Shown here piece after piece: positions 28,536 through 47,601 of a stretch of DNA of 64,000 bases. The translations under genes were made by a program, and so were the position numbers. Each line of letters opens with the position of its first letter. Within the stretch, counting starts at the first letter, position 1. Source of the stretch: Nitrosopumilus sp. (GTDB lineage: Archaea > Thermoproteota > Nitrososphaeria > Nitrososphaerales > Nitrosopumilaceae); assembly GCA_963662625.1 (NCBI GenBank), contig OY759726.1, forward strand, positions 96,001 through 160,000, written 5' to 3'. The notes beneath the pieces were generated by a model. It worked only from the letters and a program-made list of their open reading frames with translations. It ran no database searches and had not been told where the DNA came from.

Positions 28536-29018
28536 CTAGTCCTCCGCCTCCAGGTACTGCGTGGAGGGGCCGTAGAAGTCTATGACCGCGTCATCACGCA
28601 GTTCCAGCGCCTCGACATGCCCGCATTTGCAGACCCACGTGTCATGGACCGCGCCGCCGTCGCGGCGGTACAGCTCCGTGGTGGGCTGGTTCGCCCTGCA
28701 CGCGCGGCAGTTCTTGCCCCGCACCAGGGTGATCGTCTCGCTGTCCCTGTCGTCGCTGTCGGCTCGCCCCGGCGCGCCCCCCGCCACCGCGGGGATCCCG
28801 CACACCTGCCCGGACCCGTCCAGGACTATCTCCGCCGTGGCCGGCACCCGCGCCCGAAGGCACGCGGCGTACGACCTGGCGCCGTGCCGCACGATGACGG
28901 CCGCGACGTTGCCGGGCCTGAAGCCCTCCGGGAGGAGGCTCGCCGCCTCCACCGTCTTACCTGCCATGGGGATCTCGCCCCACTCTAGTTCTCCCCTGTA
29001 CTTTGCTACCTGTTCCAA
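28536..29018 (-). CDS. constant-N-terminus family copy 1, Zn-ribbon C-terminus
   Basis: GGAGGTGG SD + TTG; EQVAKYRG...GIPAVAGG, then CRAC...CKCG. Confidence 0.7.
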   Translation of the reverse strand: MEQVAKYRGELEWGEIPMAGKTVEAASLLPEGFRPGNVAAVIVRHGARSYAACLRARVPATAEIVLDGSGQVCGIPAVAGGAPGRADSDDRDSETITLVRGKNCRACRANQPTTELYRRDGGAVHDTWVCKCGHVEALELRDDAVIDFYGPSTQYLEAED

Positions 29019-29158
29019 GGAACCACCTCCAGTGATCCGTTGTCCTGCCGTGACGGCAGTGGCTGCCGCGGTTCCGCGGCGGGGGCCTGGCGGCCCCCGG
29101 TCTCGTCCCCTTCCGGCCGCGCTTGGCGGCCAGTCCCGGCAAGTGCCGGCCGGCGCAT

Positions 29159-29791
29159 CTACGTTTCGGGGCCTTGGCCCCTTCCGGCCGCGGGCCCGCC
29201 AGTGGGCGGGCCGCCCGCAGCCACGCCTGGGGGGCTTTCCCCAGACCTGAGGAACTCGATTAGTTCCAGGTGGTTTTTTCGCATGGAGGACTCGAGCGAG
29301 TTGAGGAGACTGGCAGTCTCCTTCCTCGAAGCCTCGAGCGAGTTGAGGAGACTGGCAGTCTCCTTCCTCGAAGCCTCGAGCGAGTTGAGGAGACTGGCAG
29401 TCTCCTTCCTCGAAGACTCGAGCGAGTTGAGGAGACTGGCAGTCTCCTTCCTCGAAGCCTCGAGCGAGTTGACGATGCGCTCATTAGACTCCTCAATTGA
29501 AGCCCCTAGCGCGTTGATGGCCCGCGTATTCGCCACGGCTTCCGCCATCAACTCCTCGTTCCCCCTGATGACCTTCCCGAAGTTATCATTGATGTCCTTG
29601 GTGATCTGCTTCGTGGTGAACTTCATCACTAGACCTACCACCCCCATCAATATAAAACTCGACGAGACACCGAGCAGCGGCGGGTGGAACGTGTGGAGGC
29701 CCATGATGACACACCCCGCCACGATCATGGGCGTGTGGAACCTGGAGTCCCTGAACACGGCAAGGAAGGAGCTGAGTTCCTTCCTATCCAT
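29159..29791 (-). CDS. membrane-anchored coiled-coil protein with four 14-aa repeats
   Basis: LE(A/S)SRKETASLLNS x4 (42-bp DNA repeat at ~29290-29470). Confidence 0.6.
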   Translation of the reverse strand: MDRKELSSFLAVFRDSRFHTPMIVAGCVIMGLHTFHPPLLGVSSSFILMGVVGLVMKFTTKQITKDINDNFGKVIRGNEELMAEAVANTRAINALGASIEESNERIVNSLEASRKETASLLNSLESSRKETASLLNSLEASRKETASLLNSLEASRKETASLLNSLESSMRKNHLELIEFLRSGESPPGVAAGGPPTGGPAAGRGQGPET

Positions 29792-30164
29792 GCCGGCTCA
29801 CATTCCCACCGCGCATGGCCGACGACACGTACCCGCGCAGCGACGCCGGGCAGCACCTCAGCACCGGCCCGGGAGCCACCCCGCTGGCCAGGAACGCCTC
29901 CCGGAGGAGTTCCGGGTTCCGGCACCTCCCGAGCCCGGCGATCGCCAAGGCGATGGTCCTCTCCCGCACCGCCTGCCTCCCGGCAGGGATGCCAGACGGC
30001 GGGAACCCCCGGATCACCTCCATGGTGCGGTTCGCGACCAGCGAGAGTGCCATCCTGCCGTCGTGCCCGGATTCCCGGAACAGGCGCCTCAGGCACCTGC
30101 CCGTGACACCGTGGCCCACGAGCTCGTCGAACACCCTGGCCAGCAGTTCCGGCGGCAGGGTCAT
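29784..30164 (-). CDS. hypothetical protein
   Basis: ATGA overlap with the stop of the upstream ATPase gene. Confidence 0.5.
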   Translation of the reverse strand: MTLPPELLARVFDELVGHGVTGRCLRRLFRESGHDGRMALSLVANRTMEVIRGFPPSGIPAGRQAVRERTIALAIAGLGRCRNPELLREAFLASGVAPGPVLRCCPASLRGYVSSAMRGGNVSRHG

Positions 30165-32341
30165 CCCCGCCCGTCCCCGAGCTCGCACAGCCGCTTGTCG
30201 AACTCCTCGATAACCCACGGGCTGTAGTCCCGGCCGTTGCCGCTGCCGTCGTGGATCTCCTCGATCACCCTCCTCGCGGTGTCGCTCTTGAGCCCGTGGT
30301 AGAAGGCGTACCTGCCAAGCATCCGGCTGTCGACCATGGGCTCGTCCGTGCCGTCCTCCCCGACGCCGGGGGTCCTGGCGAACTTTGGCAGCATGTCCCC
30401 AAGGTGCAGGTGTGGGGGTTGCCCGGCCCACCCCGCGGCGAACACGAGGGGGAAGGCGTGGATCCCGGCCGCGTAGAGGACCAGCACCCCACTCTTGACC
30501 AGGTGGCCTACCTTCCCCTTCGGGATGTCGCTGTGCCTGACCGTGGGGGCCTTCCCAGGCCTGCCGCCGGCACGCTCGATTATCTGGCCGACCGTCATCA
30601 CCCCCTCGCTGGTCTCATAGACGTAGTTCCCGAGCGACTTGCGCCACTCCGCGAACGGGATCCCCGAATATCCGGAACCCCGGACGGAGTTGGCGCACAC
30701 CATGTCGACCGGGAACGCGCCGCCCCGGCGCATGTGCTTCCCGGTGTCCTGGACCAGCGTTATCTCGTCCATTCTGGCCATGACCATGCCGGGCCGGACG
30801 TCGTCGAGCTGGAATGACCAGTAGCCGTCATCGCCGTACGTCCTGGGGATCCGGTACACCCTGACATTCCTCTTCCCGGAAGTGGAGCTCCTGTCAGACT
30901 TGATCCCGTTGGCGGACATGTACGATTTCACGCTCATTACCCCGTTGGACTCGAAGAGTGGGATCATGTCCGGATCGACCTTGAAGACCTTGATCTTGGG
31001 GTCGCGCCTTAGCACCGGGTCTATCTGCGCCGACCTGCAGGAGTCGGTCACCAGGATGCCGCGGCGTTTTCCGGCCACGAGCCTGAGCCCGATCTCCCAG
31101 GGGGAGCCGTTGGGGCTGTCCGGCTCCCTCGCATCGCACGTCAGCATCCTGTGGTAGTCATCCCACTCCGAGATCCCGTCCAGGTCGTCCTGGACTGGCC
31201 CATGGATGAGCCCGTCGATCAACCGGCATTCCGGGGACATCACGTACTCCTCGAACGACCCCTTCTCGATCGAGGATACGAACCCGGTGATCATGGAGTC
31301 TATCTCCCGGTCGACCCTCTCGCGGGCCTCGTCGCTGAGCCTCTCCCTGTCAGGCGTGGGCTTGTACTTGCGCTCGTCCCTGACGTTGACAGACAGCAGC
31401 CCGATGTGTCCGCGGTACTTGCCAACGTAGTCGTACTGGATTGGTATGCCGCACAGGTATGCCACCGTCACATCGCCCCCTACCGCTCCGGTCCCGCTGT
31501 AGGTTATGCACACGTCGATGTCGTCACCATCGATCGTGCTGGCATGCAGCCTCCTCAACACCCCGCAGTCAGGGCTGCCGAAGAGCCGCCTGTCGTAGGA
31601 TTTGAGGCTCTCCAGCGCCAGCGTCTCCAGGTCCCCGGCCGGCACCATCCCGGAAAGTTCCCGGCCCCACTCGGTGGTGGCGGCGCTGCCGGTGATCTCG
31701 ATCTCCGTGGGGACTCCGCTGAGCCTGGCGCAGTCATGCACCATCCTGACGATCTCCCCCAGGTCGACGTCCTCCCTGGCCGTCAGGGAGACCCTGGTCC
31801 CAAAGTCGCCCTTATCGGGCGTGGGGAGCCCCGTCTGGAACCCCTCCCCGGCCTTGCCCATCACGGCGTACCTTTCGCCGGTCTCGCGGCAGTGCGTCTC
31901 CAGGATCATGATGTCGGAGATGCACATGTACGCCGCGCGCCCGAAGCCGAACTGGCCGGACTCCCGCCCGTCGAAGTTGGTGCTGCGCCCGAGGACGCAG
32001 AAGACGTTGGCGAACGTGTCCCAGCTCATCCCGGAGGAGCCGAAGCCCTCCAGCACGATCTTGCGCGAGTGCGAGTCGACCTTCAGGCTGATCCTCGCCC
32101 CGTGCCCGCCACCGATCGCGGTCCTACAGGCGCGCGCCTCGTTGGCGTAGAGCTCCCTGATCCCAGACGACGGATTCGCGTAGAGGTCCTTGCTGATCCT
32201 CTGCCTGACGACGTCCTTCTCCAGGTCGGTCGAAATGAACCCGCCCGCGCTTCCGTCCGGCATGTCGCCGGCCCATCCTGTCTGCTGGAGCTTCAGCGGC
32301 TCCTCTTTCCTTATCTCTGGCTTGTAGTACTTCTCACCCAT
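30161..32341 (-). CDS. GHKL (Hsp90/rIIA-like) ATPase, paralog 1
   Basis: LYANPSSGIRELYANE, GMS, GQFGFGRAA, FGT and PTPDRERL motifs. Confidence 0.8.
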   Translation of the reverse strand: MGEKYYKPEIRKEEPLKLQQTGWAGDMPDGSAGGFISTDLEKDVVRQRISKDLYANPSSGIRELYANEARACRTAIGGGHGARISLKVDSHSRKIVLEGFGSSGMSWDTFANVFCVLGRSTNFDGRESGQFGFGRAAYMCISDIMILETHCRETGERYAVMGKAGEGFQTGLPTPDKGDFGTRVSLTAREDVDLGEIVRMVHDCARLSGVPTEIEITGSAATTEWGRELSGMVPAGDLETLALESLKSYDRRLFGSPDCGVLRRLHASTIDGDDIDVCITYSGTGAVGGDVTVAYLCGIPIQYDYVGKYRGHIGLLSVNVRDERKYKPTPDRERLSDEARERVDREIDSMITGFVSSIEKGSFEEYVMSPECRLIDGLIHGPVQDDLDGISEWDDYHRMLTCDAREPDSPNGSPWEIGLRLVAGKRRGILVTDSCRSAQIDPVLRRDPKIKVFKVDPDMIPLFESNGVMSVKSYMSANGIKSDRSSTSGKRNVRVYRIPRTYGDDGYWSFQLDDVRPGMVMARMDEITLVQDTGKHMRRGGAFPVDMVCANSVRGSGYSGIPFAEWRKSLGNYVYETSEGVMTVGQIIERAGGRPGKAPTVRHSDIPKGKVGHLVKSGVLVLYAAGIHAFPLVFAAGWAGQPPHLHLGDMLPKFARTPGVGEDGTDEPMVDSRMLGRYAFYHGLKSDTARRVIEEIHDGSGNGRDYSPWVIEEFDKRLCELGDGRG

Positions 32342-32456
32342 GTGATCTACCCCCTTTGGTTCGTTGTCGCGGGCCTTCCACCCGCCAGCCGGCGCCGCCA
32401 CGGCGCGGTCCCCACAGCGCGTCCCGGTGGCCTGGGGGCGGGCTCCCGCCCGCCGT

Positions 32457-34661
32457 CTACTCATTCCGGACCCCGCCGCGGCGGCCGCCCTGGCTCCGGC
32501 CTTGGTCGCTGGCCAGGCGAGCGTCTATCTCCCCGATCAGGCGCATGTAGGCATCCGACCAGTGGGGGTTCCCGCCCCTCATGAACTCGGTGAACACCTC
32601 CCTGATCATGGGCTCCCGGATCCCGACGTAAAACTCGTAGAACCGCATCACGTCGGCGTCGACGTCCCTCCAGGACTGGTACACCAGCCCGGCCACCCCG
32701 GAGAACTCGGAGGACATGTCTTCCATCCTGAGGCACTTCTGCATTCCCCTTCGCATGGCCTTGCCGTACCTGTCTGGCTTCCCGTCAACCCCATGGTACA
32801 GGAGGATCGGGAGAAGTGACTGCTTGCTGACGTCGACTGCCAGCAGGCCGCCCTGGCTCATCTTCCCGGCGGCCTTTCCGGCCGGGAACTTCACCATCCT
32901 CAGGTCCCACTTGGGGTCGCATATGTCCCTCACCGTCATCACCCCCTCGCTGGTGGAGTAAATCCTCCCCCCGAGGGACTCGCGGAAGTCGGGCCACGCC
33001 ACCCCTTCAAAGTCCGGGCCGACGGAACCGGCCTTGGCGTACCTGAACCCGAACTCGTCGCTCTGGTAGTTCCAGGCGATGGCCGTGAGCCCGTTCTGCA
33101 CGGATTCGAACTCCTCCCCTACCAGCACCAGGTTTTCCGGCAGGTCATCGGAGGCCATGGACGTCGCCTTTTTGTGGCCCCAGGAGGTGTACACCCTGGT
33201 TTTCCTGGGGACCTTCGCCGATTTTTTCACCTTGATGCCGTTCTCCTTCATGTACCGCCTGACGGGGGTGAGGCCTTCGGCCTCCAGCATGTCATACGCC
33301 GCGGCGTCGGGGATCCTGACCACCTTAATTTCTCGGTCGTGCTCCTCGATCGCCTCGAGGATTGCCGAGCTGAACGCCCTGGTTATGAGGACCTTCGGCC
33401 CGCTGATGATACTCCCGAGCGGCCAGCATCCCCCGCCTATGCACCCGCTTGCCTCCACCGCCATGGCGCTCCTGTAGCCGGCGTACATGGCGCGGTGCCT
33501 GAACGGCACCAGCCCCTCGTACACCCCGCGCCCGACGTGGTTCGTCAGGCAGTCAAGCAGCCTGCATGATGGATCGGACAGGTAGCCTGTCAGCGTCCTC
33601 TTCCCATGGGACATTACCCTGGCCTCGATCAGGGCGTCGACCCTCTCGCTGACCCTGCCGGCGGCCTCGTCGCTGAGCCTCTCCCTGTCAGGCGTGGGCT
33701 TGTACTTGCGCTCGTCCCTGACGTTGACCGACACCAGTCCGATGTGTCCGCGGTACTTGCCAACGTAGTCGTACTGGATTGGTATGCCGCACAGGTATGC
33801 CACCGTCCTGCCGCCGCCCACTCCGGGCGAGGCCATCACGACCACCTCGATCTCGTCGTCACCCACGTCTTGGACGGTGGGCTTCCTGAGGATCGCCTCG
33901 GCGTAATCGCCATCAACGCGGAACCGCCCGGCGGATATCTCCCCAAGCGTCTTCCGCGTGACGGCGCCCTCGTACTCCGAAACCCCGTTGTCCGGGTTAC
34001 GCCCCCTGCCGTCGAGGACGATCTCAGTGGGGACCCCGCTCATCTCGGCGCAGGCGTGCACCATCCTGACGATCTCCCCCAGGTCGACGTCCTCCCTGGC
34101 CGTCAGGGAGACCCTGGTCCCAAAGTCGCCCTTATCGGGCGTGGGGAGCCCCGTCTGGAACCCCTCCCCGGCCTTGCCCATCACGGCGTACCTTTCGCCG
34201 GTCTCGCGGCAGTGCGTCTCCAGGATCATGATGTCGGAGATGCACATGTACGCCGCGCGCCCGAAGCCGAACTGGCCGGACTCCCGCCCGTCGAAGTTGG
34301 TGCTGCGCCCGAGGACGCAGAAGACGTTGGCGAACGTGTCCCAGCTCATCCCGGAGGAGCCGAAGCCCTCCAGCACGATCTTGCGCGACCCGTACTCCAC
34401 CGTGAGACGGATGCTCGCCCCGTGCCCGCCACCGATCGCGGTCCTGCAGGCGCGCGCCTCGTTGGCGTAGAGCTCCCTGATCCCAGACGACGGATTCGCG
34501 TAGAGGTCCTTGCTGATCCTCTGCCTGACGACGTCCTTCTCCAGGTCGGTCGAAATGAACCCGCCCGCGCTTCCGTCCGGCATGTCGCCGGCCCATCCTG
34601 TCTGCTGGAGCTTCAGCGGCTCCTCTTTCCTTATCTCTGGCTTGTAGTACTTCTCACCCAT
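32457..34661 (-). CDS. GHKL (Hsp90/rIIA-like) ATPase, paralog 2
   Basis: N-terminal ~200 aa nearly identical to paralog 1; divergent C-terminus. Confidence 0.8.
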   Translation of the reverse strand: MGEKYYKPEIRKEEPLKLQQTGWAGDMPDGSAGGFISTDLEKDVVRQRISKDLYANPSSGIRELYANEARACRTAIGGGHGASIRLTVEYGSRKIVLEGFGSSGMSWDTFANVFCVLGRSTNFDGRESGQFGFGRAAYMCISDIMILETHCRETGERYAVMGKAGEGFQTGLPTPDKGDFGTRVSLTAREDVDLGEIVRMVHACAEMSGVPTEIVLDGRGRNPDNGVSEYEGAVTRKTLGEISAGRFRVDGDYAEAILRKPTVQDVGDDEIEVVVMASPGVGGGRTVAYLCGIPIQYDYVGKYRGHIGLVSVNVRDERKYKPTPDRERLSDEAAGRVSERVDALIEARVMSHGKRTLTGYLSDPSCRLLDCLTNHVGRGVYEGLVPFRHRAMYAGYRSAMAVEASGCIGGGCWPLGSIISGPKVLITRAFSSAILEAIEEHDREIKVVRIPDAAAYDMLEAEGLTPVRRYMKENGIKVKKSAKVPRKTRVYTSWGHKKATSMASDDLPENLVLVGEEFESVQNGLTAIAWNYQSDEFGFRYAKAGSVGPDFEGVAWPDFRESLGGRIYSTSEGVMTVRDICDPKWDLRMVKFPAGKAAGKMSQGGLLAVDVSKQSLLPILLYHGVDGKPDRYGKAMRRGMQKCLRMEDMSSEFSGVAGLVYQSWRDVDADVMRFYEFYVGIREPMIREVFTEFMRGGNPHWSDAYMRLIGEIDARLASDQGRSQGGRRGGVRNE

Positions 34662-34790
34662 GTGATCTACCCCCTTTGGTTCGTTGTCGCGGGCCTTCCA
34701 CCCGCCAGCCGGCGCCGCCACGGCGCGGTCCCCACAGCGCGTCCCGGTGGCCTGGGGGCGGGCTCCCGCCCGCCGTCGATGTCCGGGGCG

Positions 34791-35364: not shown

Positions 35365-35661
35365 TCAGTCCCCGTACCTCGCCCCGGCGTCATCGTGCCC
35401 GCACTCATGGCAGTGGAACGCGCCGTCGTCGGCGCGTTCGTATTCCGGCGAGTCGCACTCGGGACAGTTGTCCCTTATCCAGTACTCCCACATGTTGACG
35501 GCGATGTCGCGCGGGGCACGCGCCCCTTCGGGATCCCAGTCCGCGTCGAAGAAACTTTCGTTCGTCGAGGGGCTCGGGATCAGCATCGCGTTTACCGCCG
35601 CGTCCCCGTGATCCCGTCGGAGTATCCGCTCGACCTCGCCCATCTTTTCGGAGTCGGCCAT
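35365..35661 (-). CDS. hypothetical protein with C-terminal Zn ribbon
   Basis: CPECD...CHECG. Confidence 0.55.
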   Translation of the reverse strand: MADSEKMGEVERILRRDHGDAAVNAMLIPSPSTNESFFDADWDPEGARAPRDIAVNMWEYWIRDNCPECDSPEYERADDGAFHCHECGHDDAGARYGD

Positions 35662-36134
35662 CACGCAAACCTCTCGTGCAGCTTGTCCTTGAGGGCCAGG
35701 TCTTCCTCGTCCAGTTCGCCGTAATCCAGCTTCTCGAATGGCTCGCCCGTGTGGTCCGACGCCCATGTATCCATCTCTCTGGTCACGGCGCAACCTGCCC
35801 GGGCGCAGTGTTTGCCGATTCGGGCGCCGCCGCCGTGTCCCCAGGCCCCCGGGTTTTCGGTCAAGCCGCCCTCAATCTCGACGGATGCGGCCCACTTGTG
35901 GCCGCCGTTGTGGGTGCATGGAGGCTCCGGGGGGTCGATGACCACGGCCGTCTGGTGGTCATCGCCGTCGGGATCCGTCACGACGCCGTAGACGCGGCAC
36001 GGCGCGGAGTCTGACCACTCGTCCCGCATCCAGTCGCGGGCCTGCCGGAGGGCGTCGTCCAGGGATTCGGCCTGGATCGTCTCCTCGGTGTCGGAATCAT
36101 CCGTTACGGTGTAGGTCTGCATCTTCCGAGTCAT
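35661..36134 (-). CDS. hypothetical phage/plasmid-type protein
   Basis: Acidic 157-aa ORF with PPEPPC..H.W...ENPGAWGHGGG; ATGA coupling. Confidence 0.6.
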   Translation of the reverse strand: MTRKMQTYTVTDDSDTEETIQAESLDDALRQARDWMRDEWSDSAPCRVYGVVTDPDGDDHQTAVVIDPPEPPCTHNGGHKWAASVEIEGGLTENPGAWGHGGGARIGKHCARAGCAVTREMDTWASDHTGEPFEKLDYGELDEEDLALKDKLHERFA

Positions 36135-36817
36135 GCCGCGGCCTCGCGCTCGCAGTTGGGGCACTCGACGTGCTCGTACGCGGCGTCATGGACCTCGCGC
36201 GCCTTCCAGTCGCACTCGCGGCACGCCAGGACGTGGAGCGAGCGCGCGTTGTAGGGCTCATGCCAGGAGATGACCAGGCCGGAGCAGTCGGGGCAGGGGA
36301 AATGCTTCACCGTGGTGTAGCCCGTCTTGTCCCCGAGCCATCTCCCGTCGCTGCCGTCGTCCCTCCCCTTGTCGTTGATGGCTTTGTCATGGGCGGCCTC
36401 GCGCTCGCAGTTGGGGCACTCGACGTGCTCGTACGCGGCGTCATGGACCTCGCGCGCCTCCCAGTCGCACTCGCAGCACGCCAGGACGTGGAGCGAGCCA
36501 GCGTCGTGGTGCTCATACCAGGAGTTGACCTGGCCGTTACAGTCCGGGCAGGGGACATCCGTTACCGTGGTGTCACCCCCCGCCACCGCGGGGATCCCGC
36601 ACACCTGCCCGGACCCGTCCCGGACTATCTCCGCCGTGGCCGGCACCCTGGCATTCAGGGTCACCGCGTACGACCTGGCGCCGTGCCGCACGATGACGGC
36701 CGCGACGTTGCCGGGCCTGAAGCCCTCCGGGAGGAGGCTCGCCGCCTCCACCGTCTTACCTGCCATGGGGATCTCGCCCCACTCTAGTTCTCCCCTGTAC
36801 TTTGCTACCTGTTCCAA
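36131..36817 (-). CDS. constant-N-terminus family copy 2, duplicated multi-Cys domain
   Basis: Constant module, then CPDC...ACxEC...CPNC twice. Confidence 0.7.
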   Translation of the reverse strand: MEQVAKYRGELEWGEIPMAGKTVEAASLLPEGFRPGNVAAVIVRHGARSYAVTLNARVPATAEIVRDGSGQVCGIPAVAGGDTTVTDVPCPDCNGQVNSWYEHHDAGSLHVLACCECDWEAREVHDAAYEHVECPNCEREAAHDKAINDKGRDDGSDGRWLGDKTGYTTVKHFPCPDCSGLVISWHEPYNARSLHVLACRECDWKAREVHDAAYEHVECPNCEREAAA

Positions 36818-36939
36818 GGAACCACCTCCAGTGATCCGTTGTCCTGCCGTGATGGCAGTGGCTGCCGCGGTTCCGCGGCGGGGGCCTGGCGGCCCCCAGT
36901 CTCGTCCCCTTCCGGCCGCGCCGGCCGCGCCGCCGCGCC

Positions 36940-37408
36940 TCATCCCCCCGCCTCCGCCACGAAGCAGGTGTGCCTTCCGCAGAACTGGCACGGGCCAAAG
37001 CCAACCACCTTTTCTATCTGAAGGCCGATCGGCCCCGCGCAGTTGGCGCAAGCATGCACCTCAAGATCGCCGCTCATCGCCGATCCCGCCCGTCGGGTTC
37101 GCTCCTGCCGCCAAGGCCCACGCGTTGAGGCTCGGTGAAGCAGGTCGTCCGGCCGCATTTCCGGCACGGCCCAGGCGGGAACCTCCTGGGATCACGGCCG
37201 TCGCCGAGGAACTCATCCTTGCAGTAGAGGCAGGTGTGATGGCCCGGGGGCCCTGCAGGCTGGCTCACTCGTCACGCACCGTCCACACGAACCCGCACGT
37301 CAGTTCCCCGCAGCCATCGCAGAGCATGGGCTCCTGGCCCATCCCAGTCCTGATGGCGATCCTCTGCTCATCGGCGCATTCGTGGCATAGCGGGTGGGGC
37401 GGCATCAT
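36940..37408 (-). CDS. three coupled 45-64-aa Zn-finger ORFs (36940-37077, 37074-37268, 37265-37408)
   Basis: Each has CxxC...CxxCG..TC(G)F; 4-nt start/stop overlaps. Confidence 0.55.
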
Positions 37409-39228
37409 TCGTCCTCCCAGTCCCTGTCCCGGATGCGCTCCAGGATCCTCCCGTACTTCTCCTCCGCCTCTTCGACGTCCACCCGGAGGTAGTCATCGTT
37501 GACGCAGATGGAGTAGAACTCGCACTTGGTCAGGATCCGGACGCCGCCTTCCGGGGAGCCCATGATCTCCCTGATCGTCCCCAGTTCGGCATGGGTGGGG
37601 GAACGCCCGGCGTCCTCGTCATCCAGGACCACCGCGTACATTTCCACCCCGCCCTTCCCGGGGAACGTCTCCCATTCGAGGCCGCACTCGAACGACCAGT
37701 CGTCCCCGTCGCAGGAGTAGATCGTTTCCAACCCGCCGGTCCAGGAGGAGGACGATGGAAAGAAGGACGGCTCGCCTATCTCCCCGGTCTCCGGGTCCAC
37801 CTCCACGGCGGCCGAACCCCCGCCGAGACACCCGATCTCGTGGGCCTTCGCGACGTGCCCCGCGATCTTGTCGGATTCGTCCACCATTCCGGCGATCGCC
37901 CGCATCCGGTGGAGGAACCTCCGGTATGTCTCCACGGCCCCATCGGCGGCCTCGATGACCGTCTCTGGAGAGTACAGGCAGCCGGCCACCTCCGCATCGG
38001 TGAGCTTTCGCACGTCCTGGCGTTCGTCGAGACCGGATTCGCGGATCTCGGCAAGGGTGGCCTCGCGCCCCACCTTGTCGAGACCAAACAGTGAATTCCG
38101 GGCCTCCACCAGGCGCCCCTCGAATCCGGCGATGGACGCGTTCTCTACGCAACGCTCGTCAAGCTCCTCCCCAAGGTACACCGAGTCGAGGGAGTAAAGG
38201 CTGACCCAACCCGGGGTGCAGGAGCGGCCGTCTGGACTGGTGGCCACGGCGACGGCGCCGGTCTTCTCGCTTGCCTCAAGGGACTGGTGTGCCTCCCCGG
38301 GGTGGAGCGCGCAGTATACGTGCATCCCCCTCACCAGGGCCTCGATCTCGTCGGAATGGTCGGCTATCCCTTCCGCCGTCCCCCCGGCCAGCCTTTGGCA
38401 GGACTCGGTCAGCAGGCGCATTCCCCGGGCCACGTTGTCCACCATCGTGACGTCGGCCAGCAGCCCAGCGTACGCCTCTTGGGCCTTCAGGATCTCGTCC
38501 CCATAGTACTCCTCGAGGTCGAGGGCGTCGTAAAGCTCCTCGTCGGAGAAGACGCGCACCGGCCTCGACAGGTCTAGCGTGGCCCCCTCCTCGCGGAGCG
38601 TGGCCAGCTCCCCAGCGCTGGCCTCGCGGCCGGCATCGGCCAGGCACGTCCCGGCCCCGGGGTTGAGCGCGTAATGGGTGGCGAACTGGTTTCGCCGGCA
38701 CTCCGGCTCGATCTCGACTGCCCCCAGTTCCGGGTGGTCGTCCAGCCAGAAACCGTACGGCGACATCTCGGCGATGATCCCGTGCCCGTCCTTGGGGGGG
38801 TCACCATCGTCCAGCCCCTCCTCCGGCGTCTGCGTCCTGACGGAGCCTATGCTGCCGGTGGAGTAATTCGCCTCGATCCTCGCGACCATGTTTCCGATGG
38901 CGGCCTCCCTCATCATCGCCATCACGTAGCCCTTGATGTTTTCGGACTCGTCGACGATTTCGGGAATCCCGCGGGCAGCGCATGAGCCCCCCGCCACCGC
39001 GGGGATCCCGCACACCTGCCCGGACCCGTCCCGGACTATCTCCGCCGTGGCCGGCACCCGCGCCCGAAGGCACGCGGCGTACGACCTGGCGCCGTGCCGC
39101 ACGATGACGGCCGCGACGTTGCCGGGCCTGAAGCCCTCCGGGAGGAGGCTCGCCGCCTCCACCGTCTTACCTGCCATGGGGATCTCGCCCCACTCTAGTT
39201 CTCCCCTGTACTTTGCTACCTGTTCCAA
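37405..39228 (-). CDS. constant-N-terminus family copy 3, large acidic C-terminus with 3 internal repeats
   Basis: GREASAGELATLRE..VRVFSDEE / GREATLAEIRE..VRKLTDAE / GRSPTHAELGTIRE..VRILTKCE. Confidence 0.75.
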   Translation of the reverse strand: MEQVAKYRGELEWGEIPMAGKTVEAASLLPEGFRPGNVAAVIVRHGARSYAACLRARVPATAEIVRDGSGQVCGIPAVAGGSCAARGIPEIVDESENIKGYVMAMMREAAIGNMVARIEANYSTGSIGSVRTQTPEEGLDDGDPPKDGHGIIAEMSPYGFWLDDHPELGAVEIEPECRRNQFATHYALNPGAGTCLADAGREASAGELATLREEGATLDLSRPVRVFSDEELYDALDLEEYYGDEILKAQEAYAGLLADVTMVDNVARGMRLLTESCQRLAGGTAEGIADHSDEIEALVRGMHVYCALHPGEAHQSLEASEKTGAVAVATSPDGRSCTPGWVSLYSLDSVYLGEELDERCVENASIAGFEGRLVEARNSLFGLDKVGREATLAEIRESGLDERQDVRKLTDAEVAGCLYSPETVIEAADGAVETYRRFLHRMRAIAGMVDESDKIAGHVAKAHEIGCLGGGSAAVEVDPETGEIGEPSFFPSSSSWTGGLETIYSCDGDDWSFECGLEWETFPGKGGVEMYAVVLDDEDAGRSPTHAELGTIREIMGSPEGGVRILTKCEFYSICVNDDYLRVDVEEAEEKYGRILERIRDRDWEDE

Positions 39229-39586
39229 GGAACCACCTCCAGTGATCCGTTGTCCTGCCGTGACGGCAGTGGCTGCCGCGGTTCCGCGGCGGGGGCCGGG
39301 CGGCCCCCGGTCTCGTCCCCTTCCGGCCGCGCCTGGCGGCCAGTCCCGGCAAGTGCCGGCCGGCGCATCTACGTTTCGGGGCCTTGGCCCCTTCCGGCCG
39401 CGGGCCCGCCAGTGGGCGGGCCGCCCGCAGCCACGCCTGGGGGGTCACCCCCAAGGCCTGGTGACGCTGCTTGTCCAACGACGGCGCGGGCCACGCCCGG
39501 GTTGGATCCGTGGTGGCATCGGGTGGTCGCGGCCGTCATGCCAACACCTGCCTCACGGGAGGATATAAGCCAACCCGTGGCGGCGG

Positions 39587-40216: not shown

Positions 40217-40217
40217 G

Positions 40218-41373: not shown

Positions 41374-41389
41374 TTCAACACCTCCTGTG

Positions 41390-42265
41390 TCAGTTGTACG
41401 GGCACATCGTGCCCGTCCAGTATTCCCCGAACTCGCATTCGAGGCTCATGCCGCCCGGCATCTGTCCTGCGGCGTCGTCCCACCTGCTGGACACAACCCT
41501 GCCGAGCACGTCTTTCAGTCCCCCACCACACGCCGTCTCGAACTTGCCGAGGTCGACGGTGCAGAGGAGCAGCAGCAGCCTTGCGCCGCCGTCCGAGGAG
41601 TCCCAGATGTCACGGATCTCCCCAAGCGTCCTGTTCCTCAGGAAGGCGCGTATCCCGGATACTGTCTCCAAGATATCCGCGCCACCCGTCCCGGCGGCGC
41701 CCGTCACGGCCCCGAGGCTTCCGCCCTGGCTGCGCACGCGGGGGCGCAGCGCGAGCAGAGGAGGAACGTCTCCCCAGTCTCCTCGCCATCCCGGCCGATG
41801 GCCGCGATCACGGCCCAGAACTTGCCCATGCCACCGCCGCAGTTGCGGCACGACTGCCCCTCCACCTAGGATCCGCCCCCGTTTTGCGGGATGCAGAACC
41901 GGTGGCCGGGCACGTCGCCCTCCTCCAGGTAAACCTGGCAGTGGCGGCAGTAGAACACTACAGAGTCGTTGCCTAGGTCTATCGCCGGGACCAGGTGGTG
42001 CAGGAGGAGGAAGGACGACCCGCGGTCACCCATGCCTTCCACCACCCGCGGAGAACTCCAGCGGCAGCGGCACCCTAAGCAGCCGGCCGCCGGCCGCCGC
42101 GAGCACCATGGCGCGCTGGCCGCACCTCCGGCATTTCTGCCTGTACTGCGGGCCGCGCGCGTGCGCCCTCTCGTAGGTCCCGTCGACCGTCACCCAGTCG
42201 CAGCGCCCGTCCAGGCCGTCGCCGCAGTCCGGGACGGAGTGGTGGTCTGCAGTCCCCGGCATCAT
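41390..42265 (-). CDS. cluster of four short coupled ORFs: three Cys-rich, one related to the copy-5 repeat domain
   Basis: RTLGEIRDIWDSS resembles KTLAEIREAWNSS of 44970-45953; CRNC..CSRC, CRHC..HRFC and CRRC motifs read manually. Confidence 0.45.
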
Positions 42266-42948
42266 TCCCCGCCCTCCTGGGAGTTGAGCGATCTCTCCTT
42301 GCCCTCGACCGACTTCACGTGCCCCTGGATCTCCTTCGTGAGCTGCTGGAAGAAGACGTGGTCGGAGCTCTTCGGGTGGAGGAGGAAGAAGATCTTGGCT
42401 ATGATCACCATGGTCTGCGACGACACCTTGACGTCGCCGTGCACCGGTATGTTGATCACGGAGTTCATGCTCCCGCTGGAGACGATGCACACGAACTTCC
42501 ACTCGTTGTCGACACGGTAGTGCGCGGCCCCGTGCGAGTCCACCATGAACACCCCGTCCACGACGTAGTTGCCAGGTTCCGCCTCCATGTCGACCCTGTG
42601 CGGGTAGGCGCTGAAGACCGACTTTATCAGGTCCTCGTGAACCCTGATGGAGTACCACTCTCGGAATATCTCGGTGAACGCCTCGACGTCCTCGCCGAGT
42701 ATCGCCTTGCATATCCCCTCCGCGTCAGAGATCTGCATCGTCTTCCCGTCGTGGAAGGCGTTGAAGATCCCGTCGTCGTACGTCTCCCCGACGTGGGTCC
42801 CGTCGGCGAAGGTGTGGAATATCCGCTCCCCCTGGAGGCGAAGGTATTTCATCTCGTGGTACGGCGTCTTCGGCATCGTTGACACCCCCATCTCGGTCTG
42901 TATTATGTACAGGTCCTTCCTGTCCTCCAGTACCTTCACGGGTGGCAT
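42262..42948 (-). CDS. hypothetical protein
   Basis: 228-aa ORF with globular-protein composition. Confidence 0.65.
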   Translation of the reverse strand: MPPVKVLEDRKDLYIIQTEMGVSTMPKTPYHEMKYLRLQGERIFHTFADGTHVGETYDDGIFNAFHDGKTMQISDAEGICKAILGEDVEAFTEIFREWYSIRVHEDLIKSVFSAYPHRVDMEAEPGNYVVDGVFMVDSHGAAHYRVDNEWKFVCIVSSGSMNSVINIPVHGDVKVSSQTMVIIAKIFFLLHPKSSDHVFFQQLTKEIQGHVKSVEGKERSLNSQEGGE

Positions 42949-42950
42949 GC

Positions 42951-43433
42951 CTATGCAGACCCCCCGACGTTCCCGGATAGAAATGCTTCCACGGCAATGG
43001 CGTGGGAGCAGTGCTTCCTGAACCGGAAGCCGAGGCAGTCACACCTGCCGCTGCAGACGACGTGGACCCTTTCGGTGATCACCGCGTACGCGCCGTTGCC
43101 TATCTCCCTGACGGCGCCAGAGGCGAACAGGGCCTCCCCCTTCCGCCTGCACCTGGCGCTGGGTTCCACGGCCCGGGCCTCCTGCACGGATCCCCCCGCC
43201 ACCGCGGGGATCCCGCACACCTGCCCGGACCCGTCCAGGACTATCTCCGCCGTGGCCGGCACCCTGGCATTCAGGGTCACCGCGTACGACCTGGCGCCGT
43301 GCCGCACGATGACGGCCGCGACGTTGCCGGGCCTGAAGCCCTCCGGGAGGAGGCTCGCCGCCTCCACCGTCTTACCTGCCATGGGGATCTCGCCCCACTC
43401 TAGTTCTCCCCTGTACTTTGCTACCTGTTCCAA
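42951..43433 (-). CDS. constant-N-terminus family copy 4, SWIM Zn finger
   Basis: CDCLGFRFRKHCSH (CxC-xn-CxH). Confidence 0.75.
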   Translation of the reverse strand: MEQVAKYRGELEWGEIPMAGKTVEAASLLPEGFRPGNVAAVIVRHGARSYAVTLNARVPATAEIVLDGSGQVCGIPAVAGGSVQEARAVEPSARCRRKGEALFASGAVREIGNGAYAVITERVHVVCSGRCDCLGFRFRKHCSHAIAVEAFLSGNVGGSA

Positions 43434-43549
43434 GGAACCACCTCCAGTGATCCGTTGTCCTGCCGTGATGGCAGTGGCTGCCGCGGTTCCGCGGCGGGGG
43501 CCTGGCGGCCCCCGGTCTCGTCCCCTTCCGGCCGCGCTTGGCGGCGCGA

Positions 43550-44131
43550 TCATCTGGATTTGGGGGCGGAGATTGACACCTCCACCTCCCTGATCCCCGA
43601 GTCAAGGACGAACGCCCTGACGTCCTTGTCCAGCCCGGAATATATCGCCCAGACCTGCCCTGCCGGGTTGCTGCCCATGTATCCGACGTCCGTCTCCGAC
43701 GGGTACGCCACCCCGCTAGGGTGGGAGTGGAATATCCCGACCACCTCGACCCCTAGGCCAGCCGCCCTGGCGTGCGCCCCGACCAGCTCCCCGTCCGGGA
43801 TGCTGAATGTGACCGGAGACCTCGCCGCGTTTCCGGTGATCACGACCTCCGTGACCTCCACGGCGCTCCCTGGCCTGCCTAGCAGGACGGCGCATGACTC
43901 GTCAGGCATGCACGCCTCGGCGTGCCTCATGATCTTGCGAAGCCCCTCCCCGCTGAGGGTTATCCTGGACGGCCAGGAACGCGACTCCTCCGAGTCGCAC
44001 CTGCCGCAGTCGCACCCCATGCATTTGGCATGGTCGCCCCCGCTGCAGTTGGTGCAGTGAAATCGCGGGCCGTCCCACTCCCCGGCGCCGGAGCGCCGGA
44101 AGGGGGGGACCCTGCCCTGGTAGGCGCTCAT
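43550..44131 (-). CDS. JAB/MPN+ (M67) metallo-isopeptidase with N-terminal Cys-rich domain
   Basis: PDESCAVLLG...FHSHPSGVAYPSETD. Confidence 0.85.
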   Translation of the reverse strand: MSAYQGRVPPFRRSGAGEWDGPRFHCTNCSGGDHAKCMGCDCGRCDSEESRSWPSRITLSGEGLRKIMRHAEACMPDESCAVLLGRPGSAVEVTEVVITGNAARSPVTFSIPDGELVGAHARAAGLGVEVVGIFHSHPSGVAYPSETDVGYMGSNPAGQVWAIYSGLDKDVRAFVLDSGIREVEVSISAPKSR

Positions 44132-44967
44132 GCCGCCGGCGTGGGGGCCACCAGGCGGCCGTCGCCAGTCCCAGCTCCCGGCTTGCCGGCGCCGGCCGAG
44201 AGTATCATGTCGAGCACCTTCTCGACCTTGCTCATCACCCTGACGCAGGACCGGCCGACCTCCTCCGGGGTCGCCTCCTTGGAGTAGTGGGCGATGTAAT
44301 TGTAGGAGTTGGCGTCCGCCGCGTGGCCGTACATCCTGGCAAGCACCGCAGCCGCGAGTTCGGCCACGGTCTCCTGCTCCGGATCCTGCCCGGGCTTCAG
44401 GTCCTCGATCCTCGAGTGCGCCAGGTGCGCCAGCTCGTGGAAGAAGACCTTCGGGTCGGAGGTGCACAGGCGTATGAGGCCACGCCCCTTCGAGAAGCTT
44501 CCCTCTTCCCCCCTGACCGTCTCGTCGTACTTGACGTCGGCGCCCCACTTTCTGGCCACCTCGAGGAGGGGCGGGGGCTCGACGTTCGAGTCTGCAATTT
44601 CAAGGTCGTCTCCCTCCGTGTCCTCGAAACGGAACACGGGGACGCAGCGGAATCCGGTGACGAACTCCCTATCCTCCTCCCCGTCCGGGCCTTGGATCGT
44701 GCGCTTCGCCACGCAGGGGGCCAGTATGTACGCGGCCTTGCTGCCCTTCCTGACCTGCCTGCCGACCTTCTGCCACTGCCTGTAGCCCCTGGCGTCGCCG
44801 GTGCCGGCGATGAACATGAAGAGCCTGTTGCTCATGCTCCAGGAGTCGGACGGCCTCCCGACCTTGAGCTTCAGGTACGTGGCCTTGACCATGTCCGGAA
44901 ACTCCTCGGAGGAGAACGCGTCGACTATCTTCTGGAGCTGCTCTATGGCCTTCTGGGTGCTGGGCAT
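44128..44967 (-). CDS. ArdC-like ssDNA-binding/antirestriction protein with HExxH domain
   Basis: WSMSN...GYRQWQKVGRQVRKGSKA.YILAP; FHELAH; E.VAEL. Confidence 0.8.
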   Translation of the reverse strand: MPSTQKAIEQLQKIVDAFSSEEFPDMVKATYLKLKVGRPSDSWSMSNRLFMFIAGTGDARGYRQWQKVGRQVRKGSKAAYILAPCVAKRTIQGPDGEEDREFVTGFRCVPVFRFEDTEGDDLEIADSNVEPPPLLEVARKWGADVKYDETVRGEEGSFSKGRGLIRLCTSDPKVFFHELAHLAHSRIEDLKPGQDPEQETVAELAAAVLARMYGHAADANSYNYIAHYSKEATPEEVGRSCVRVMSKVEKVLDMILSAGAGKPGAGTGDGRLVAPTPAA

Positions 44968-44969
44968 GC

Positions 44970-45953
44970 CTATTTCCCCCTGCAGTACGGGGCGAAGACG
45001 TCGCTGGTCTTGACGTGCTCGTACTGGTCCCAGTCAGAGTCCAGGAGGTCCCTCTCCATCTCGTCCTGGGTGTACCCCCCTTCCGCCGAAAAGTCATGGT
45101 CCTCCAGTTCGTCCCTCAGGCTGTTGCAGAACTCGACCATGTTTGTCCTGTCGTGCGCCGTGGAGGAGTTCCACGCCTCCCTGATCTCGGCCAGGGTCTT
45201 CCCTGAGTACTGGAGCCTCGCCGCCCTGTCGTTCAGCTCAATCCTCCTGGCTTTCAGGTCATGCAGCGCGGAGCCGATCTCCCTGATTTCACTGACCAGT
45301 TTCTCGACGGTCTTCCCAGACCCGTCTCTCACCGGCCCGCCCCTGCAGTACGGGGCGAAGACGTCGCTGGTCTTGACGTGCTCGTACTGGTCCCACTTTG
45401 AATTCAGGAACTGGTGAAGCATTTCTGGCTGGCTCCAGCCCCCCTCCATGGAATAGTCGTTGTCCTGCAGTTCGTCCTCGAGGCTGCCGCAGAATTCAGT
45501 CATGGCGTACCTTTCGCCATCGTCGCCGGCGTCCCACATCTCCCGGATCTCTTCCAGGGAGTGGACGGAGTACTTTATGGCCGCGGCCTGGTCGTTCAGC
45601 GCCCTCCTCCTGGTCCTGAGTCCCAAGATCTCGATGTCGACGTCCTCGCGCCTGCCTGCGATCTTCTCGACTTCTGGCGAGTTGGCAATCAAGCCCCCAG
45701 CCCCCGGCGCGCCCCCCGCCACCGCGGGGATCCCGCACACCTGCCCGGACCCGTCCAGGACTATCTCCGCCGTGGCCGGCACCCGCGCCCGAAGGCACAC
45801 GGCGTACGACCTGGCGCCGTGCCGCACGATGACGGCCGCGACGTTGCCGGGCCTGAAGCCCTCCGGGAGGAGGCTCGCCGCCTCCACCGTCTTACCTGCC
45901 ATGGGGATCTCCCCCCACTCTAGTTCTCCCCTGTACTTTGCTACCTGTTCCAA
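44970..45953 (-). CDS. constant-N-terminus family copy 5, duplicated helical domain
   Basis: Two repeats ending WDQYEHVKTSDVFAPYCRG. Confidence 0.75.
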   Translation of the reverse strand: MEQVAKYRGELEWGEIPMAGKTVEAASLLPEGFRPGNVAAVIVRHGARSYAVCLRARVPATAEIVLDGSGQVCGIPAVAGGAPGAGGLIANSPEVEKIAGRREDVDIEILGLRTRRRALNDQAAAIKYSVHSLEEIREMWDAGDDGERYAMTEFCGSLEDELQDNDYSMEGGWSQPEMLHQFLNSKWDQYEHVKTSDVFAPYCRGGPVRDGSGKTVEKLVSEIREIGSALHDLKARRIELNDRAARLQYSGKTLAEIREAWNSSTAHDRTNMVEFCNSLRDELEDHDFSAEGGYTQDEMERDLLDSDWDQYEHVKTSDVFAPYCRGK

Positions 45954-46344
45954 GATACCACCTCCGTGATATGTCGTGCCGCTCTCGCGGTCGGCGGGGG
46001 CCATGCCCCCGCGGGGCGGGCATCGTCTTCCCGGTGCCTCGGTAGTCGTTCATCCCGATCGGGATGGGTTGTCGTATTCCCCGACCCGCGCCCGGCACAC
46101 GCCGGGTTCGGGTTTCGGCGAGGCCCGCGCGGGACCAAGCCAACCCGGCCAGTGAGGCCGAGCATCCGGCGGCTGTCTGTTCCGCCAGCCGGAATCCTCA
46201 GGGGGTTTGCCCGCATCCAAGGCGGGTCACGGCTCTGAGAGTGGCCGTGATTCGCCCCGCCGCGCCGCAGGCGCCCGGGACACGTCATTTCCGGGCAGTT
46301 CCCCGGAAGTGGCGCTGGGCGCCGGCGGCGCCGGCCTGGGTTCC
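45715..46344. repeat. ~630-bp repeat (structured leader + constant module), also at ~47363-47992
   Basis: Offset 1648; near-identical. Confidence 0.92.
46079..46205 (-). ncRNA. hammerhead-like ribozyme with expanded core (GUC site)
   Basis: CCCC-CUGAGGA-[2 hairpins]-GGC..GCC-GAA-ACCCG...CGGGU-C-GGGG. Confidence 0.6.
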
Positions 46345-46497
46345 CACAGCCCCCGCCGGACGGCAGGCACCTGGCGTGGGAGGGGTGATCAGGCCCGGCG
46401 GGCCCCGGGGTTCCCCCCGGCCAGTCCCTGGCCAGTCCGTAGTCCCCTAGGGAGATCGTGCCGCCGGGTGGGGGGGGCGTCTACCCTCCCGCCGCCG

Positions 46498-46665
46498 TCA
46501 CCCTCCCCCCTCGGAGGCGTCCACGCCCAACTTCTCGGCCATCTTGGCCTTGAAGGCGGAGGCGAACTTGTCCTTGGATTCATGGTCGGGGAACCCGCCG
46601 ACAACGGACACGCTGACGCGGTCGCTGATCCTGATCTCGCCCGAACCATTCCCGTCGGAGGGCAT
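46498..46665 (-). CDS. small hypothetical protein
   Basis: MPSDGNGSGEIRIS..., 55 aa, starts 2 nt after the upstream stop. Confidence 0.45.
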   Translation of the reverse strand: MPSDGNGSGEIRISDRVSVSVVGGFPDHESKDKFASAFKAKMAEKLGVDASEGGG

Positions 46666-46667
46666 GG

Positions 46668-47258
46668 CTAGTCCCCCCTGAACAGGGTAAAGTCGGAGCC
46701 GTACCCCAGGAAGTGGTCGCACAGCCACATGCCGTCCTTCCAGTCCTTGGCCTCGCCGTCGCTGCTCACCAGCATCCCGTCCCCGAGGTGGTGCTTGGCC
46801 ACGATCAGGCACGCGTTGACAGCCAGGTCGTACGGCTTGTACGCGGTCTTGCAGCAGTTAAAGTGGAACTGCCTGCCGTCCCTTTCGGTAACGTGCCCGG
46901 AGCTCTTCCTCTGGAGGAGGAATGTCTCGTGCGAGCAGTCGCCGTCGCACATCCTGGTGTCTATCTCGTCCCCGGCGAACCACTGGCTCGACGGCCCGTC
47001 GCCGCCGACCATGACGCCCGACGCGTTCTCGGACGGCCAGGTCAGCCTGAGGGACTGCTCCTTGTGCCCGCACGCCGCCGGGCCGTTGAAGCGGATCTCG
47101 TTGGCGGTGAACTGCGGGAATTTCCCCCCGACGCCGTTTGCCAGCTTGACCCCCAGGTGTTCCAGCGGCTTGACCAGCCGCTTGAAGTCGGAGGCCACCT
47201 TCCTGAACTCTGCGGGCGGGAAGGATGGCTCGGTGTACCAGTAGTGGCTGTAGCCCAT
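46668..47258 (-). CDS. conserved phage/plasmid-type hypothetical protein
   Basis: MGYSHYW...IRFNG...HETF...CKTAYKPYDLAV...VSSDG. Confidence 0.7.
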   Translation of the reverse strand: MGYSHYWYTEPSFPPAEFRKVASDFKRLVKPLEHLGVKLANGVGGKFPQFTANEIRFNGPAACGHKEQSLRLTWPSENASGVMVGGDGPSSQWFAGDEIDTRMCDGDCSHETFLLQRKSSGHVTERDGRQFHFNCCKTAYKPYDLAVNACLIVAKHHLGDGMLVSSDGEAKDWKDGMWLCDHFLGYGSDFTLFRGD

Positions 47259-47259
47259 C

Positions 47260-47601
47260 CTAGTACGCCCCCTTGAGCGCGCGCACTCCCCCGTACGTGG
47301 GGGAGGGGGTCCCGCCGGAACCCCCTTCGGCCGCGGGAATCCCGCGGGCAGCGCATGAGCCCCCCGCCACCGCGGGGATCCCGCACACCTGCCCGGACCC
47401 GTCCAGGACTATCTCCGCCGTGGCCGGCACCCTGGCATTCAGGGTCACCGCGTACGACCTGGCGCCGTGCCGCACGATGACGGCCGCGACGTTGCCGGGC
47501 CTGAAGCCCTCCGGGAGGAGGCTCGCCGCCTCCACCGTCTTACCTGCCATGGGGATCTCCCCCCACTCTAGTTCTCCCCTGTACTTTGCTACCTGTTCCA
47601 A
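47260..47601 (-). CDS. constant-N-terminus family copy 6, short tail
   Basis: Constant module, SCAARGIP, then 24 aa. Confidence 0.6.
   Translation of the reverse strand: MEQVAKYRGELEWGEIPMAGKTVEAASLLPEGFRPGNVAAVIVRHGARSYAVTLNARVPATAEIVLDGSGQVCGIPAVAGGSCAARGIPAAEGGSGGTPSPTYGGVRALKGAY

Follow-up and report, generated by a model that had tools for sequence, protein, structure and literature searches.

Multiple copies of a Gly-Gly-ended domain, together with a JAMM metalloprotease gene, on a putative plasmid-like island of Nitrosopumilus

Eukaryotic ubiquitin is encoded either as polyubiquitin or as a fusion to small zinc-binding ribosomal proteins, and is cut out after its terminal Gly-Gly (GG). 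Long leader peptides of the NHLP/Nif11 type, as in prochlorosins, also end in GG. Three papers bear on archaea and mobile elements: one describes HvJAMM1 as an archaeal JAMM protease of the SAMP/ThiS/MoaD systems (PMC4443979), another records a fusion of a ubiquitin-like (Ubl) domain and E1 for Thaumarchaeota (PMC2948915), and a third deals with polyvalent proteins of phages and conjugative elements, presented there as scarce in archaea, in which effectors such as ArdC-N are parts of larger proteins proposed to be cut by an encoded peptidase (PMC5512222). Here we analyse a 64,000-nt stretch (the window, G000:C1:96001-160000) of the genome of Nitrosopumilus sp., a marine-type ammonia-oxidising archaeon (G000; a single contig of 1,858,698 bp, 99.5% complete, GC 0.634), in which six genes begin with near-identical copies of a repeat block; the 81-amino-acid (81-aa) domain that the block encodes, hereafter the N-domain, ends in GG. 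We propose, giving it an even chance, that the N-domain is a di-glycine tag that a plasmid-like island encodes in precursor form, as a fusion or translationally coupled, and that JAMM cleavage sets free. The initial annotation of this DNA overlooked the GG end, the presence of a JAMM protease gene within the cluster, and a seventh copy of the block.

A repeat search of the window returned six direct copies of about 300 nt, all of one family (copies 1-6: 28776-29075, 36575-36874, 38986-39285, 43191-43490, 45711-46010 and 47359-47658). Aligned on the minus strand, each of them shows GGAGGTGGT, a few bases, TTG and a near-invariant 243-nt block with GGGATCCCCGCGGTGGCGGGGGG at its end. This block is 95-100% identical among the six copies (pairwise differences of 1-12 nt), and 10 of its 13 variable coding sites lie inside one 17-nt patch. 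The six frames are open from the TTG, have in common the 81 aa ending in GIPAVAGG (..CGIPAVAGG), and continue into tails of 79, 147, 526, 79, 246 and 32 aa, respectively (Table 1). The TTG start is backed by homologues with ATG at the same aligned position. Repeat search, alignment and open frames agree with the initial description of six TTG-started, near-identical blocks; the combinations of CLRA or TLNA with L or R, and the junctions common to copies 1/5 (APG) and 3/6 (SCAARGIP), likewise reappear in the alignment and translations. The type of the 17-nt patch (CLRA or TLNA) strictly alternates along the array, copies 1, 3 and 5 carrying one type and copies 2, 4 and 6 the other; given three copies of each type, the chance of this is 1 in 10.

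The extent first assigned to the block holds for its 243-nt coding part, and the repeat in fact also includes non-coding upstream DNA: 108 nt are common to copies 1-4 and 216 nt to copies 1/3, and 391 nt of different sequence are common to copies 5/6. Past the GG, the repeat goes on for 26 nt in copies 3/6 and about 10 nt in copies 1/5. Three GC hairpins lie within the 108-nt stretch; folding of the common upstream DNA as RNA gave z-scores of merely -1.5 to -2.2, and we make no claim of an RNA element. The seventh copy (G000:C1:163030-164463) starts with ATG, is 66% identical and lies 4 kb outside the window. The C-termini vary from copy to copy, and the labels 'Zn ribbon', 'SWIM' and 'helical' given to them derive from Cys/His spacing alone, without Pfam support: compared with Pfam, the tails gave nothing at E<=0.01, bar one sub-threshold Sgf11 match. 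For the tail of copy 3 there was neither a Pfam nor a plasmid match. Internal DNA repeats are present in copy 2 (36138-36323 and 36393-36578) and copy 5 (44977-45046 and 45340-45409). Right behind the GG, a degenerate copy of the tail motif occurs in copy 6 (..GIPAAEGG.., 47260-47358) and in a relative (..VPAVAGT.., L009:9929-10630), as though a part of the domain's end had been duplicated.

The N-domain family is rare. Scanned in full with HMMER, 1.84 billion representative proteins yielded 22 members at E<=0.001, six of them from the source genome. Among 14 outside proteins, seven end exactly at GG, three have 2-6 extra residues, three have long tails and one lacks GG. In species-representative genomes, relatives are confined to Nitrosopumilaceae, and none was found in viral contigs or JGI metagenome contigs. 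A profile match is present in 32 of a sample of 201 Nitrosopumilaceae genomes (a tally that includes the unpublished G103 and G104), strong matches in just six, with 7, 3, 2, 2, 5 and 2 copies. Nine of the 21 N-domain genes of these six genomes stop exactly at GG and 12 are tailed, GG being present in 20 of the 21; the usual end is PAVAGG, with PAVTGG, PVVAGG or GAVVGG in some copies. Extending the block search to relatives has in this way brought N-domain homologues from five further Nitrosopumilaceae genomes, several with recurrent downstream families. Ten family members matched no relevant Pfam or NCBIfam model at E<=1 (an unrelated sigma-factor match had an E of 0.078), 10 cluster proteins matched no PHROGs family, and literature searches, which were not keyed on the motif itself, found no paper describing the domain. 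The text of Krupovic et al. 2019 (PMC6563490), as distinct from its supplementary tables, which may list related elements, contains no mention of ubiquitin, JAB, ArdC or ParM.

The cluster also encodes a JAMM/MPN+ metalloprotease, the stop of whose gene is 9 nt ahead of the repeat block of copy 4. Its matches are to Prok-JAB (PF14464; 68.9 bits on the genome, 67.8 bits on the protein) and JAB/MPN (PF01398; 19.4 bits), with no match to RadC, and its relatives in PDB are archaeal JAMM1 and an Rpn11-like protein. The JAMM/MPN+ motif, E...HxHx7Sx2D, is intact (E78, H135, H137, S145 and D148; H135-S-H-P-x6-S-x2-D148). The genome has three Prok-JAB matches, one of them inside the cluster, and the island protein is 51.5% identical over 132 aa to a chromosomal JAMM; the gene of its chromosomal paralogue lies at G000:C1:331923-332225. 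For a complex of the island JAMM, zinc and the N-domain, structure prediction gave ipSAE values of 0.90, 0.89 and 0.89, the best of three controls reaching 0.39; the runs share at least 71% of contacts, and the pLDDT of the partner is at least 86. Of 80 solved complexes, 58 attain the mark applied to such scores, as do 2 of 110 mismatched pairs; these figures are only roughly valid here. In the model, N-domain residues 75-81 (IPAVAGG) contact E78, H135, H137, S145 and D148. The model supports binding of the N-domain by the JAMM without demonstrating it.

The N-domain tail is also that of a host protein. The single ThiF-type E1 of the host is a 445-aa fusion of an N-terminal Ubl and ThiF (within locus L028, G000:C1:663229-666435), and its junction, YILPAVAGG followed by S, is present in all six of the six N-domain genomes; the PAVAGG of the N-domain is the same. 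The fusion gene adjoins a threonine-synthase-like gene. The locus resembles SAMP/ThiS/MoaD-JAMM systems in its PAVAGG end, as in the host Ubl-E1, in its JAMM1/Rpn11-like JAMM and in a precursor that would need a cut. It differs from them in that the N-domain has no PF02597 match, aligning over its last 22 columns only, and is island-borne, multi-copy and present in few genomes.

Each copy is closely followed by another gene, as had been noted: the offsets from copies 1-6 to the next gene are +14, -34, -4, +2, +2 and +1 nt, thus ranging from -34 to +14 nt, with four at -4 to +2 nt. Open reading frames were compared with seven loci of four other genomes, to which an adjacency table adds an eighth locus and a fifth genome. 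Several families occur directly behind the N-domain in more than one genome: the 228-aa family in the source genome and G052, the 196-aa family in the source genome and G028, the ArdC-like 279-aa family in the source genome and G006, and the ~750-aa family in G006, G052 and G188. In the metagenomic protein P0023, an N-domain continues in frame into a homologue of what is here the separate gene downstream of copy 2 (49% over 77 aa, E 1e-25). The ArdC-like gene matches Pfam ArdcN with 21.4 bits, just below the cut-off of 22.6, and has the HExxH motif as HELAH; its product has 45% identity, across 88-89% of its length, with plasmid proteins of Alicyclobacillus, one of which is annotated as ArdC-like, and orthologues are found at L014, L011 and L010. 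With a putative single-stranded-DNA-binding N-terminal domain and HExxH it has the features by which ArdC is recognized, and its function is predicted accordingly. The two ~750-aa paralogues include DNA stretches that are 88-96% identical and have homologues in every related island; they match no Pfam family, and their N-terminal motif, without a model match, is one that we take to be reminiscent of GHKL ATPases. Comparison of the 767-, 228- and 196-aa proteins with PDB sequences gave nothing below an E of 0.2. The cluster can be contrasted with polyvalent proteins in that one constant head recurs in many separate short fusions and a JAMM is present, as against one giant protein with an MPTase domain.

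The suspicion of recombination between copies, raised in the initial annotation, is strengthened by the present data. The four-gamete test fails for three of six site-pattern pairs, and block boundaries are nested and mosaic between copies. In a maximum-likelihood tree of 21 domains, copies cluster by genome whatever the partner gene: supports are 85/93 for the six copies of the source genome, 97/96 for G006, 98/95 for G052 and 100/97 for G188, the five G091 copies showing no resolved grouping and the two G028 copies lying far apart. Domain identity is 94-100% among the six source copies and 21-56% between genomes. Given incompatible site patterns, mosaic block ends and clustering by genome despite recurrent partners, gene conversion among copies would be the simplest account; repeated independent insertion ahead of the same families would be less parsimonious.

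The repeat, the family, the GG ends, the JAMM gene with its intact motif, the conserved neighbours and the clustering by genome are observed; what we infer from them is that precursors are cleaved and translation is coupled, that conversion homogenises the copies and that the free N-domain has a later use. The N-domain would be produced as a precursor, alone or with an in-frame tail. Either the island JAMM or its chromosomal paralogue would cut tailed forms after Gly81, just as a JAMM has to cut the host Ubl-E1 fusion, and this would give a free GG-ended N-domain and a small Zn-binding or acidic polypeptide; in relatives, genes that stop at GG would yield the free N-domain directly. By termination-reinitiation, the N-domain frame may also feed ribosomes to the next conserved island gene, since in four of the six copies this gene starts 1-2 nt past the stop or overlaps it. 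Gene conversion would keep copies near-identical within a genome, through tracts that begin as far as 391 nt upstream and extend 26 nt beyond the GG. Because a fusion would be cleaved, switching between fused and split forms would be neutral, which fits the coexistence of both. The free N-domain might then be charged by the host E1, or act as a decoy or an adaptor.

A number of observations weigh against this proposal. The AlphaFold model of the N-domain computed on 19 sequences (pLDDT 87.5, pTM 0.77; a single-sequence model of copy 1, with a pLDDT of 36, was discarded) found nothing at E<=0.001 in Foldseek searches of PDB and BFVD, and TtuB and MoaD appeared at a TM of ~0.32 and a probability of ~0.1 only. 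In hhalign comparisons with 20 ThiS/MoaD domains from the source genome and relatives, the alignment covered the last 22 columns only, at 49.5% probability. An hmmsearch against PDB sequences returned 0 matches at E<=10. The evidence being mixed, we regard the N-domain as a di-glycine tag whose tail is host-like, its membership of the beta-grasp fold not being demonstrable. Moreover, in 26 of the 32 matching genomes the match is to a conserved membrane protein (~250 aa, multi-pass), in its C-terminal domain, and profile comparison of the N-domain with that domain gave a probability of 98.6% and an E of 1.2e-15 over 69 columns. Since the N-domain is homologous to a host membrane-protein domain whose homologues end without GG, its own GG tail could have been added late or have a structural role only. 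The sole ThiF match of the genome (C1:663994-664695) is 520 kb from the island, in which neither an E1 nor an E2 nor another conjugation enzyme was found, and in four other N-domain genomes no JAB gene lies near the N-domain genes, the nearest on the same contig being more than 100 kb away. Copies are not homogenised in G028 (30% identical) and G091 (51-95%), a cross-genome neighbour family exists for just 10 of the 21 N-domain genes, and the downstream families also occur without a preceding N-domain gene. Finally, the score of the modelled complex may only echo JAMM-Ubl complexes whose structures are already solved.

The membrane protein itself has no family match and was seen at loci L059, L073, L070, L064, L068, L053 and L055, its C-terminal 65 aa being the part homologous to the N-domain. 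The ESM Atlas gave nothing usable for the N-domain, and for the membrane protein only unnamed Nitrososphaerota clusters.

This homology is the starting point of the main rival, which appears unlikely: the N-domain would be an uncleaved, constant N-terminal adaptor that mimics the C-terminal domain of the host membrane protein and in this way docks different island proteins to one machine, be it an apparatus for transfer or packaging or a site in the membrane, with GG as no more than the end of the fold. Docking would suit the plasmid-like context with its ArdC-like protein, ArdC-type proteins being described in two papers as transmitted along with DNA (PMC6222260, PMC5512222), and the four other genomes have no JAB gene near their N-domain genes. 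However, nine of 21 family genes consist of the domain alone, and GG, absent from the membrane-protein homologues, is present in 20 of 21; the tail equals the host Ubl-E1 junction, and the cluster holds a JAMM gene into whose active site the complex model places that tail. A head of ~80 aa ending in AVAGG in several paralogues, some with Cys-rich tails, also brings to mind GG leader peptides of the NHLP/Nif11 type, in which variable Cys-rich cores are cut off by a transporter peptidase. The locus is like these in having a GG-ended head common to paralogues with variable C-termini, and unlike them in that no relevant NCBIfam or Pfam model is matched, heads occur alone (nine of 21 genes lack a core), tails reach 526 aa, and the peptidase is a JAMM rather than a C39 transporter, neither C39 peptidase nor ABC exporter nor maturase being found among the scanned cluster proteins; this explanation is largely refuted and highly improbable. 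Polymorphic toxin-immunity cassettes have a similar architecture, in which a constant head, a toxic variable tail and a tightly coupled immunity gene follow each other. This origin is very improbable, as Pfam found no toxin domain in any tail, the head also occurs alone, and the downstream genes belong to conserved families, one of them ArdC-like, that do not vary with the tail.

Two further alternatives concern the DNA rather than the protein. In the initial annotation, the block was seen mainly as a homology platform at which downstream cassettes are captured and shuffled, which now looks distinctly unlikely. Mosaic block ends and incompatible sites are what such a platform would leave, tails ahead of the same downstream family do differ between genomes, and one contig of run X3 (depth 4.7), possibly an error, has copy-3 letters at 29088 and 29123 and runs into the copy-1 flank. 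Yet the N-domain is conserved between genomes at the protein level, with a near-invariant GG and without DNA identity, and pairs of N-domain and partner recur between genomes. The tyrosine recombinase family PF00589 had 0 matches in the whole genome, the control being positive in 14 of 14 genomes and other recombinase classes not having been searched, which with the same limit also sets the locus apart from integron-like platforms. Contigs from three public runs of one study gave no evidence of alternative orders, breaking as they do at every repeat; no contig joins alternative partners with more than 21 letters on its short side, bar one within the internal repeat of copy 5. Copy order and number thus rest on the assembly alone, and the fact that these contigs stop at every copy, with none bridging, is also what one would see if a single repeat had been multiplied or misjoined by the assembler. 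Such an artefact is scarcely credible: each unique segment between copies is found in runs X1 and X2 with 0 other letters, ending ~30 nt inside the repeat boundary as expected for real junctions, 13 coding sites and the flanks vary between copies, and relatives also have 2-5 copies.

Returning to the di-glycine tag, the arrangement is like that of eukaryotic ubiquitin genes in several respects: a small GG-ended domain is encoded many times and heads fusions, several of its partners are small and Cys-rich, and the copies are kept alike within the genome. It is unlike them in that the N-domain has no detectable similarity to ubiquitin or the beta-grasp fold, the partners are island genes and not ribosomal proteins, and the island lacks any conjugation enzyme that we could find.

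Table 1. Genes and non-coding repeat parts of the N-domain cluster, with positions in the window.
Feature	Position	Strand	Remarks
180-aa gene	27979..28521	-	14 nt behind copy 1; homologue two genes behind di-Gly gene in L012
Copy 1	28536..29018	-	81-aa di-Gly domain and 79-aa acidic tail with 4 Cys (CxxC...CxC)
Non-coding upstream part, copies 1/3	29019..29234	-	216 nt; first 108 nt also in copies 2/4
Two overlapping ~750-aa paralogues	30161-32464, 32457-34721	-	Family directly behind di-Gly gene in three other genomes
167-aa gene	35661..36164	-	Behind copy 2
Copy 2	36131..36817	-	Di-Gly domain and 147-aa tail of two Cys/His-rich repeats
47-aa Cys-rich ORF (open reading frame)	37265..37408	-	Overlaps copy 3 stop by 4 nt (ATGA)
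Copy 3	37405..39228	-	Di-Gly domain and 526-aa acidic tail, pI 4.4, 106 D+E
228-aa gene	42262..42948	-	2 nt behind copy 4; same family behind di-Gly gene in L010
Copy 4	42951..43433	-	Di-Gly domain and 79-aa basic tail, CxC..CxH spacing (SWIM-like by motif only)
JAMM/MPN+ metalloprotease	43550-44131	-	193 aa; N-terminal Cys-rich stretch; PF14464
ArdC-like protein	44128..44967	-	279 aa; 2 nt behind copy 5; overlaps JAMM start by 4 nt
Copy 5	44970..45953	-	Di-Gly domain and 246-aa tail with internal ~121-aa duplication
Non-coding upstream part of 634-nt block, copies 5/6	45954..46344	-	Partner 47602-47992
196-aa Cys/His-rich gene	46668..47258	-	1 nt behind copy 6; same family behind di-Gly gene in L011
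Copy 6	47260..47601	-	Di-Gly domain and 32-aa low-complexity tail with degenerate second tail motif

The plasmid-like context to which the initial annotation alluded is apparent in the ArdC-like gene, a ParM-like gene and orphan methylases. A staphylococcal-nuclease-like gene is located at 49156-49842 and its paralogue at 51911-52627, and the seventh copy is followed by an N6/N4 DNA methylase, a ParM/actin-like gene and a DsbA-like gene. Iteron-like tandem repeats (26210-26454, 5 x 39-64 nt; 27069-27563, at least 7 x 55 nt), with several copies 100% identical, border the island on its left and could represent an origin of replication or an array of binding sites. The ArdC-like, nuclease-like, methylase and ParM genes, the iteron-like repeats and the patchy distribution of the N-domain suggest that the region is an integrated plasmid-like island. 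Its mobility is merely presumed, because no tyrosine recombinase was found, the only tRNA gene is distant (1676-1752) and the GC of the island is the same as that of the host.

Other features of the window were recorded alongside. A 1374-nt direct repeat with one mismatch (4102-5475 and 24378-25751) contains a 222-aa open reading frame and a nucleoside 2-deoxyribosyltransferase gene, and encloses 20 kb of ordinary-looking host genes, including one for a 2579-aa FG-GAP/DUF285 protein (13524-21263). The gene at 29159-29791 (210 aa, with an N-terminal hydrophobic stretch) contains five 42-nt tandem repeats (29244-29495) that form a 14-aa repeat. A possible second common N-terminal module (22-27% identity, G..VC...F.C) heads three further genes (47996-48907, 49963-51639 and 53050-53646); two of these genes follow 223-nt DNA repeats (48935-49157 and 51671-51893, 95% identical), which are located after two nuclease-like paralogues, and a shorter pair of repeats lies at 49866-49940 and 52651-52725. 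Between copies 1-6 and the seventh, a segment of low GC (~52000-64000; 0.52-0.61 versus 0.66) with an Eco57I-type methylase, HerA- and NurA-like genes and a C5 cytosine methylase looks like an inserted defence island.

To our knowledge, di-glycine precursor processing has so far been associated with ubiquitin, with SAMPs and with a few defence systems of bacteria. If the cleavage proposed here is real, mobile elements of ammonia-oxidising archaea would use it as well. The fold of the tag looks unrelated to that of ubiquitin, and an 81-aa tag with a 193-aa JAMM would then, again if cleavage is real, be a compact pair in which to study how recognition of GG tails evolves. In the cluster one would, in addition, have a clear example from prokaryotes of a multi-copy coding block evolving in concert. 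A more far-reaching version, which we think unlikely, is that of an element-encoded modifier built on an unrecognised fold, borrowed from a host membrane protein, given the exact tail of the host Ubl-E1, made as precursors resembling ubiquitin fusions, freed by the element's JAMM and charged by the single host E1, which would tag host or element proteins during establishment. Were this true, the organisation of ubiquitin genes would have been invented independently and the host sulfur-carrier/SAMP pathway hijacked. More immediately, the N-domain opens up an otherwise unannotated thaumarchaeal island, the majority of whose genes belong to no Pfam, NCBIfam or PHROG family.

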